DNA of 64,000 nucleotides from Dictyostelium discoideum (lineage: Eukaryota): the NCBI GenBank assembly GCA_000004695.1, contig CM000150.2, positions 608,001-672,000 of the forward strand, given 5' to 3'. Made by a program: the position numbers and the translations under genes. A model generated the notes under the pieces. It had not been told where the DNA came from. It saw nothing but the letters and a program-made list of their open reading frames with translations, and did not search any database. Each line of letters starts with the position of its first letter. Position 1 is the stretch's first letter. Shown piece after piece: positions 49,801 to 51,065 of this stretch.

Positions 49801-51065
49801 ATGTTGAAGACTTTAAAAGAGAAATTAATGAAAAATCAAAAACTCCATTCAATATAGATCCATTCTTTGAAATACTTAAAGAACATAGTTCAGAATTAAA
49901 AAAAGCCGTTCATGATGATGATTCCTGTACACCATATAATGTTCTTTACCAAATTTTACATATTTTTAATTCTGATAATAAAGGTTCAACAATCGCAAAT
50001 GATTTATTCGATGGTAAAACTAAATATGTATGCACAAATTGTAACCAACCAACAAAAGAATCAATTAAAATTAATTTTAATTTTAACTTTAATGTCGAAG
50101 AAATTTCACTTGAAGATGATATAATTTCAAATATATTCCAAGGTTTAGAATTTTCTGGTTTTCAAAAGTAACTATAAAATTAATTAACTATAATATATTA
50201 AAAGCTATAATTGTTTACTAATTTTTTCAATTGTTATTAATAGATGTAATAAATGTAAAAGAGATACACCTCATAGTAAATATTTAGTAACTTCACCAGA
50301 TTGTTTGGTTATTGAATTAAATAGAAACTATGATAATGCTGTCTCTTATCGTAGATTCCATAATCCAATTGAAATTATAATTGGTGATGTTTTTTATAAA
50401 AATTGTGATATTAAATATACCCATCATTCAACAATCGTAAGTTTAGAAAGAAAAAAAAATAAATTTAAAAAAATAAATTAATATTAACAACTTGTTTTAT
50501 TAAAAATTTAAATTTTAAAAAGATGATTGATAATTCAATTAATATTAGTACAGGCAATATGAATGAAAGTAAAAAAATCAAATCCACAGCTGATTCATGT
50601 TTCTCTTATATCGATAAAGATGAATGTTATAAAGAAGAACAATTAACATCACATTTATTAATTTATAAAAAATCCAATTTAGATACTCCAGGTGATGATC
50701 AAGATGAAAATCAAAATGGTGATGGTGATGATGACAAAGGTAATAATTCAACTTTAGAAATTGATGATAATGATGATAATACTAAAAATAACAACAATAT
50801 TGTAATTCCACCATTGGATTTTTCAAACTCATGTGGATTAACAAAAGATGATGTCATTAAATATCATAATGATAAATTTTTTGTTTGGGTCAATACATTA
50901 CCGTTAAATCCAGTGCATTTGGTTGAAATGATTGATGGTTTATCGGAGCAACTAATTGTAAAGTTTGATGACGCTTTCGGTTTAGATGATGATGGTTGGA
51001 ATAATGTAATCCCAATATTTAAAATTAGAAAAATATTTTTAGATTATTTGAATAAATTTAATTAA
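34853..51065 (+). CDS. Giant (about 5,274 aa) multi-AAA+ ATPase of the dynein/midasin/RNF213 (AAA_5) class with a C-terminal catalytically degenerate USP-like (peptidase C19) domain; exons 34853..36069, 36195..36821, 36923..50167, 50244..50436 and 50523..51065
   Basis: The first ATG is at 34853; the track's M at 34835 is TTG. Four introns fit in phase: GTAAGT at 36070 to ttag at 36194 (phase 2); GTAAGT at 36822 to tatag at 36922 (phase 2); GTAACT at 50168 to aatag at 50243 (phase 2); GTAAGT at 50437 to aaaag at 50522 (phase 0). Exon 1 is N/S-rich with (CAAACT)n giving SNSNSN. Walker A motifs GEYSTGKT (39807..39830), GDTGVGKT (40956..40979) and GPPGCSKT (42306..42329) are present. Walker B motifs are MVVFIDEFN and CVVFIDEAG. 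AAA_5-type C-motifs are VGAMNP, ILSNKILDAAITNRMMV and FKIIIHMP..LPWLNRFEKY. The C-terminus reads LFDGKTKYVCTNCNQ..SLEDDIISNIFQGLEFSGFQKCNKCKRDTPHSKYLVTSPDCLVIELNRNYDN...SCFSYIDKDEC..LTSHLLIYKK, which aligns with the USP zinc-finger / LkRF / C-terminal blocks. Confidence 0.8.

Follow-up and report, generated by a model that had tools for sequence, protein, structure and literature searches.

In active ubiquitin-specific proteases (USPs, peptidase family C19), it is the fingers subdomain that holds ubiquitin by its globular body. RNF213 is a major factor in human disease (stroke risk) and in cell-autonomous immunity, whose evolutionary origin and modular logic are poorly understood; among its domains is an RZ finger. 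The mouse protein has an E3 ligase module with a RING and a C-terminal domain (CTD) that is bilobal, alpha-helical and without counterparts in the PDB (PMC7311170). USP-type domains are also found in the pseudo-deubiquitinases USP39/Sad1 and USP52/PAN2, reviewed in PMC10919355. Here we analysed a stretch of 64,000 nucleotides from Dictyostelium discoideum (contig CM000150.2, positions 608,001 to 672,000, forward strand; hereafter the window) and, within it, the 3′ end of a giant, AT-rich gene of the Dictyostelium type, on the + strand. The gene encodes an AAA ATPase core resembling that of RNF213 and, close to its C terminus, a module of 286 amino acids (aa). On balance, we somewhat favour descent of this module from a USP catalytic core that has diverged and lost its catalytic apparatus, with the zinc ribbon of the fingers still under constraint. 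Judged from its sequence, the module is a probable divergent pseudo-USP whose similarity falls below the database threshold. The statistics support a zinc ribbon of the USP fingers type and the strands on either side of it, but do not extend to an entire USP core.

The fingers-like block and its similarity to USPs

Residues are numbered from the start of the open reading frame (ORF) at position 37119, which gives a product of 4594 aa. The module (EESLSIGRKL...YKKSNLD) covers aa 4183-4468. Its recognisable motifs are DLFDG..CTNC at aa 4295-4308, SLEDD at 4330, CNKC at 4351 and SPDCLVIELNRN at 4367, followed by STGNMNE at 4423, CFSYIDKDEC at 4440 and LTSHLLIYKK at 4455. The first four form a pattern of the fingers zinc-ribbon type, DLFDG-x5-CTNC-x42-CNKC-x13-PDCLVIELNRN. 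The gap between the two CxxC pairs is 42 residues, as against 47 in USP2, and the P..L strand follows the second pair after 13 residues, as against 15. The flanks, 106 aa on the N-terminal side and 89 aa on the C-terminal side, fit the length of a minimal USP core.

Scanned in isolation, the module had the Pfam family UCH (PF00443) as its top match (E = 0.0013, 18.9 bits), with residues 43-213 aligned to positions 47-175 of 254 in the profile. For the corresponding module of D. cf. discoideum, corrected for a frameshift described below, UCH was the sole Pfam match, with E = 0.0013 and 18.8 bits. The limits of the alignment in the two species were 35/43 to 208/213 in the module and 40/47 to 171/175 in the profile. 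UCH was matched at E ≤ 10 by none of 50 composition-matched decoys, comprising the reversed sequence and 49 shuffles.

For independent scoring, a USP hidden Markov model (HMM) was built from the catalytic domains of seven human USPs, each confirmed as UCH by Pfam (E = 1e-42 to 1e-78). These seven were used because a protein search with USP2, USP7 and USP8 as seeds gave almost only vertebrate USP2 orthologues. Against this HMM, the central 91 residues of the module (aa 4289-4379, GSTIANDLFDG...CTNC...SLEDD...CNKC...SPDCLVIELNRNY) scored 12.9 bits. This value was reached by 0 of 3000 shuffles, and by 3 of 5000 when all five cysteines were held fixed. The blocks DLFDG, CTNC, LEDD, CNKC and SPDCLVIELNRN fell into the same colinear register in HMMER, in hhalign and in MAFFT run with --add. 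The hhalign alignment paired module residues 111-234 with USP2 147-285 (P = 0.003); run against the single USP2 sequence, hhalign was uninformative.

A number of results weigh against descent from a USP. The Pfam alignment, which had been proposed as a check by an earlier, sequence-only reading of this DNA, does put UCH on top, but its 18.9 bits lie below the curated UCH gathering cut-off of 23.9. When the last 479 aa were scanned together, Pfam gave no UCH match even at E ≤ 10. For a sequence of this composition, Pfam E-values err a few-fold on the optimistic side, as a single decoy among the 50 obtained E = 0.0015 with an unrelated family. The whole module scored 5.3 bits against our USP HMM, a score equalled by 14 of 2000 shuffles. 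Away from the central block, scores were −0.7 bits for the N-terminal 60 residues (reached by 1007 of 3000 shuffles), −0.1 bits for the N-terminal 106 (832 of 3000) and 0.1 bits for the C-terminal 89 (1568 of 3000). The probability returned by hhalign was just 10.6%. No USP was retrieved from the PDB by phmmer or by profile searches with two or three sequences, and exhaustive phmmer with P0001, the copy from D. cf. discoideum, returned none from among 1.84 billion proteins. Finally, the AlphaFold2 single-sequence model of the D. cf. discoideum module had a predicted local distance difference test (pLDDT) score of 34, and its Foldseek matches were meaningless. In this unreliable model, DSSP assigned helices to the first ~116 residues and strands to later ones, an order that would fit a thumb preceding a palm.

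The motif-by-motif alignment to USPs put forward in the sequence-only reading thus holds in part. The peptides it quoted are all present and the central block exceeds the shuffles, but the rest of the module is at shuffle level (P 0.3-0.5). In particular, the equation of STGNMNE with GGHY, of FSYIDKDEC with W..FND and of LTSHLLIYKK with AYiLFY is plausible by eye, with distances that fit, although the C-terminal 89 residues as a whole could not be told from shuffled sequence. Neither does the USP-like region coincide with the last ~330 residues, as had been supposed. The final ~126 residues, made up of an acidic linker and a tail domain, lie outside any USP-like region, and the USP core, if the module is one, starts at ~49665, upstream of the 49900 given earlier. 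Calling the region a "dead deubiquitinase" exceeds the data; the evidence supports the fingers block alone.

The strongest competing explanation, which we consider rather unlikely while taking it seriously, is that the module is an unrelated, lineage-specific zinc ribbon. Two CxxC knuckles in a fast-evolving sequence would then resemble the USP fingers by convergence or chance, and the likeness would say nothing on ubiquitin. Such an origin would agree with a UCH match that is sub-threshold and vanishes in the 479-aa context, with a signal residing in ~90 residues alone, with the low hhalign probability and with the decoy that obtained a similar E-value against another family. It would also agree with the absence of USPs from the exhaustive phmmer and PDB searches, where the best profile match of the module was a LIM zinc finger (E = 0.12), and with weak Pfam matches of the module to other CxxC-containing families (DUF7835). 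However, the central block beat 4997 of the 5000 shuffles with fixed cysteines, which implies that the non-cysteine blocks (DLF.G, LED, P..LvI.L.R) contribute to the score. Furthermore, no decoy matched UCH, the UCH score holds in D. cf. discoideum despite 14% divergence, and three aligners agree on one register.

Distribution, loss and selection

The module was found in the window, in D. cf. discoideum and, at least as far as the third exon is concerned, on a D. dimigraforme contig. The module-bearing D. dimigraforme copy (P0004; L003 42-572) has its exon 3 at the very start of a separate contig, and the C-terminal part of the module (50523..50684) is conserved in this contig 9 protein. Word-indexed searches of 5.8 billion proteins yielded close Dictyostelium relatives and nothing else. 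Exhaustive phmmer of the D. cf. discoideum copy over 1.84 billion representatives returned itself and D. dimigraforme P0004, with no others, and a metagenome scan for relatives of the module found none. It occurs only in closely related Dictyostelium species.

The D. cf. discoideum module is 86% identical to that of the window (14% of aligned residues differ), with no change in the SPDCLVIELNRN strand or in any of the four cysteines of the zinc ribbon. Exon DNA identity between the two species is 91-93%, as opposed to 81% for the introns. The ratio of nonsynonymous to synonymous substitution rates (dN/dS), calculated for the same pair, was 0.35 in the module (321 codons) and 0.24 in the AAA core (1200 codons); the linker region preceding the module gave 0.43 and the tail 1.36. 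The module is under purifying selection comparable to that on the rest of the protein, which argues against a purely neutral relic. In the tail domain (50799-51062), DNA identity drops to 78%, as compared with 92% in the adjacent module. The tail evolves very fast, and the two D. dimigraforme tails look closer to each other than either does to the window tail, which suggests either that selection has been positive or that paralogues have undergone gene conversion.

Two further observations join the points listed above against the favoured reading. First, a second D. dimigraforme copy (P0002) is without the module. It is colinear with the window protein to aa 4127 and resumes at aa 4502, a clean in-frame gap that removes 374 residues (module and linker) and retains the tail domain. 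The D. dimigraforme copies on contig JBTAPM010000031.1 occupy 3342-7240 and 9745-13240, the upstream one being without the module; the next giant copy begins ~4 kb downstream of the module-less one, so that D. dimigraforme has a tandem pair and at least two copies. Second, the D. cf. discoideum copy carries an additional G (+1) in the LEDDIIS codons, which would truncate the module and the protein. The insertion lies at ~11130 of that locus (~50130 of the window), outside any homopolymer, and the annotators spliced around it; in the assembly the gene is split into three models of 3964, 765 and 584 aa. It represents either real pseudogenisation or an assembly error. With the module missing from one D. 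dimigraforme paralogue and frameshifted in D. cf. discoideum, it may be dispensable.

These findings bring up a further possibility, less probable than an unrelated zinc ribbon, namely that the module is a decaying relic of a USP which serves no purpose itself, is tolerated in its terminal position and is on its way to being lost. The clean absence from one D. dimigraforme paralogue and the frameshift in D. cf. discoideum are what such a relic might display, as are the disappearance of the catalytic motifs, a thumb and palm that can no longer be recognised, and the lack of any homologue beyond close Dictyostelium relatives. Against this stand the dN/dS of the module, near that of the AAA core and well under 1, the higher identity of exons than of introns, and the unchanged zinc-ribbon cysteines and SPDCLVIELNRN strand. 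The frameshift itself may be an assembly error, in a gene that is broken into three models.

Catalytic residues and the host protein

Strict and loose Cys-box patterns had no match in the 4594-aa product or in any of the six frames between 48.5 and 51.5 kb, in agreement with the sequence-only reading, which had noted the absence of a Cys box. No motif of the GHY type was found in the same product and frames, barring a chance GLHY on the opposite strand. Module residues 1-86 contain no Cys, the first being at aa 4269, and MAFFT sets an Ile (by eye possibly a Lys) at the column of the catalytic Cys. Since neither a Cys box nor a GHY motif occurs anywhere in the protein, catalysis by the module is very unlikely. 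A missed upstream exon carrying a Cys box together with a GHY motif, which the earlier reading had named as the finding that would make the module active, was looked for and not found. The sequence upstream is one uninterrupted exon, which leaves no room nearby for such an exon, and with the motif in no frame of 48.5-51.5 kb this candidate was rejected.

For the His-box column there are two competing registers, one placing there an Asn (STGNMNE) and the other a His (THH, aa 4410-4411). MAFFT gives the latter, with His 4411 on the GHY histidine and an N-E pair on the Asn/Asp of FND, at the cost of shortening the hairpin before the catalytic His by 6 residues. Because of this different register, the earlier statement that the His is replaced by Asn, with STGNMNE in the place of GGHY, cannot be asserted; it depends on the alignment. 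Activity through unconventional residues (for example THH and a Cys elsewhere) or a missed catalytic exon, for which one might cite the MAFFT pairings and the reports that some USPs first called pseudo-deubiquitinases (USP39, USP52/PAN2) are active (PMC10919355), is highly improbable in view of the Cys-free first 86 residues, the missing Cys-box-like and GHY-like motifs, the continuous upstream exon and the 6 residues cut from the strand-loop-strand before the catalytic His.

In phmmer searches of the PDB, the AAA core matched the human and mouse RNF213 structures with E = 1e-45 over ~890 residues, aa 275-1164 of the translated interval 40566-44168 of the window being aligned with residues 2501-3363 of human RNF213. 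The core carries two Walker A motifs, GDTGVGKT and GPPGCSKT. By sequence, the giant AAA gene is a member of the RNF213 family, because its AAA region matches solved RNF213 structures at this level. Downstream of the core, aa 2351-4349 gave no PDB match to the RNF213 E3 module or CTD, and Pfam found no RING or RZ finger in the host protein. A census of CxxC, CxxH and HxxC in the 4594-aa product identified just two CxxC, at aa 4305 and 4351, both in the C-terminal module. This module is not the RNF213 CTD, since the latter is bilobal and alpha-helical (PMC7311170). The host has the look of an amoebozoan ATPase of the RNF213 type whose C-terminal half is different. Within the library searched, no paper was retrieved that places RNF213 in Amoebozoa or connects RNF213 with Dictyostelium in this way.

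The end of the gene is split over three exons, as the sequence-only reading had proposed. Both introns are of the GT..AG type, splicing them restores one continuous frame that contains the peptides quoted in that reading, and both junctions are kept in D. cf. discoideum. Further 5′ exons at ~34835-36825 would add ~600-700 residues to the 4594-aa product. The putative 5′ exon at 34835-36073 contains very long poly-Asn and (Asn-Ser)n tracts, low-complexity sequence typical of Dictyostelium. At the other end of the protein, the AlphaFold2 model of the tail domain, made with 4 sequences, is all-alpha with four helices (pLDDT 48.7), and the domain gave no Foldseek and no Pfam match. A by-eye guess that the tail is SAM-like was unsupported by the model, by Foldseek and by Pfam.

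The coordinates of these features, together with those of neighbouring genes, are collected in Table 1. A (TTTA)n microsatellite occupies 51170-51222, 3′ of the giant gene, in the intergenic interval that separates it from the alcohol dehydrogenase gene.

Table 1. Features of the giant gene, its C-terminal region and neighbouring genes, in window coordinates.
Feature	Position	Strand	Basis and remarks
Giant-gene main exon	37119..50167	+	ORF list; 4350 codons, uninterrupted; GT donor at 50168
AAA core homologous to RNF213	41388..44057	+	phmmer vs PDB; Pfam AAA, AAA_7, AAA_5
Charged linker HDQVK...EEKENNEEI	49557..49664	+	directly before module; gap of D. dimigraforme paralogue starts shortly upstream, aa 4128
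Module N-terminal part, aa 4183-4288	49665..49982	+	would hold USP thumb and Cys box; helical in low-confidence model
Fingers-like block, first half: GSTIANDLFDG, CTNC (50031-50042), SLEDDIISNIF	49983..50167	+	Pfam UCH alignment; own USP HMM
Intron 1	50168..50243	+	GTAAC...TAG, 76 nt, GT..AG; phase 2, Lys codon cut after two bases
Exon 2	50244..50436	+	
Fingers-like block, second half: CNKC (50245-50256), SPDCLVIELNRN(Y), resembling LP.vL.ihLkRF	50244..50331	+	HMMER, hhalign, MAFFT
Remaining exon 2, DNAVSYRRFHNPIEIIIGDVFYKNCDIKYTHHSTI	50332..50436	+	position of USP palm strand before His box; holds THH histidines; hhalign reaches here; no independent significance vs USP HMM
Intron 2	50437..50522	+	GTAAGT...AAG, 86 nt, GT..AG, phase 0
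Exon 3	50523..51065	+	closes with stop codon
Module C-terminal part, MIDNSINISTGNMNE...CFSYIDKDEC...LTSHLLIYKKSNLD	50523..50684	+	claimed His-box, W..FND and AYiLFY equivalents; similarity not significant
Acidic Asn-rich low-complexity linker	50685..50798	+	78% DNA identity with indels vs D. cf. discoideum
C-terminal tail domain, ~88 aa (50799-51062), and stop	50799..51065	+	separate; predicted all-alpha; fast evolving
ABC-2 transporter	1755-3413		
FNIP-repeat protein	3488-5188		
ROCO (LRRK2-like) kinase, 2475 aa	20406-27830	-	Pfam Roc, COR-A, COR-B, kinase, beta-propeller
ChAPs/TPR protein	30118-32745		
Zinc-type alcohol dehydrogenase	51396-52700	-	just downstream of giant gene

Possible role and comparison with known systems

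If the module does descend from a USP, its recognisable remnant would be the fingers, a four-Cys zinc ribbon (CTNC...CNKC) flanked by lF.G, LED and P..L.I.L.R. We infer a complete USP fold, zinc binding and ubiquitin binding; the module would fold as a zinc-held domain of the thumb-palm-fingers type, followed by the acidic linker and then by the separate, small and presumably helical tail domain. Having no nucleophilic Cys, it would not hydrolyse ubiquitin. It could act as a binder of ubiquitin or of a ubiquitin-like protein, or as a structural or scaffolding part, as the analogy with pseudo-deubiquitinases (PMC10919355) and the role of the fingers would suggest. Such a module would link an RNF213-type motor that has neither RING nor RZ finger to ubiquitin.

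The full proposal, in which an amoebozoan member of the RNF213 family without RING and RZ finger carries a pseudo-USP stabilised by zinc, with ubiquitin or a ubiquitin-like protein as its ligand, is offered tentatively, and we regard it as doubtful in its entirety. Were it true, coupling of the RNF213 AAA chassis to ubiquitin would have arisen repeatedly, by way of C-terminal modules that can be exchanged, and a motor in a professional phagocyte might read, rather than write, ubiquitin marks, for instance on invading bacteria. Dictyostelium is genetically tractable, and a homologue without RING and RZ finger but with a ubiquitin-related module would be a simple system in which to study the AAA core's own role and its coupling to ubiquitin recognition.

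Among described systems, the host protein is closest to RNF213 (mysterin), a giant dynein-like AAA E3 ligase (PMC7311170), with which it shares the AAA core, the giant size and the two Walker A modules. In the Dictyostelium protein, we found neither the RING or RZ signatures of RNF213 nor any sequence similarity to its E3 module or CTD; it has the USP-like zinc-ribbon module and the small tail domain instead. The module, for its part, compares with the USP core (UCH, PF00443), in which USP2, USP8 and USP21 keep the four-Cys ribbon of the fingers. The elements lF.G, CxxC, LED helix, CxxC and P..L.I.L.R follow one another in the same order and spacing. In contrast to that core, the module is sub-threshold and has no catalytic Cys, and its Cys box, QQD box, GHY His box and W..FND are not statistically demonstrable. 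With the pseudo-deubiquitinases USP39/Sad1 and USP52/PAN2, the likeness would consist in a USP-type domain devoid of canonical catalytic residues inside a larger machine; in PAN2, this domain is fused to another enzymatic domain. Whereas the USP-type domains of USP39 and PAN2 are readily recognised and eukaryote-wide, the Dictyostelium module is barely recognisable, occurs in few species and sits on an AAA motor. Pseudo-USPs and RNF213 are both known already.

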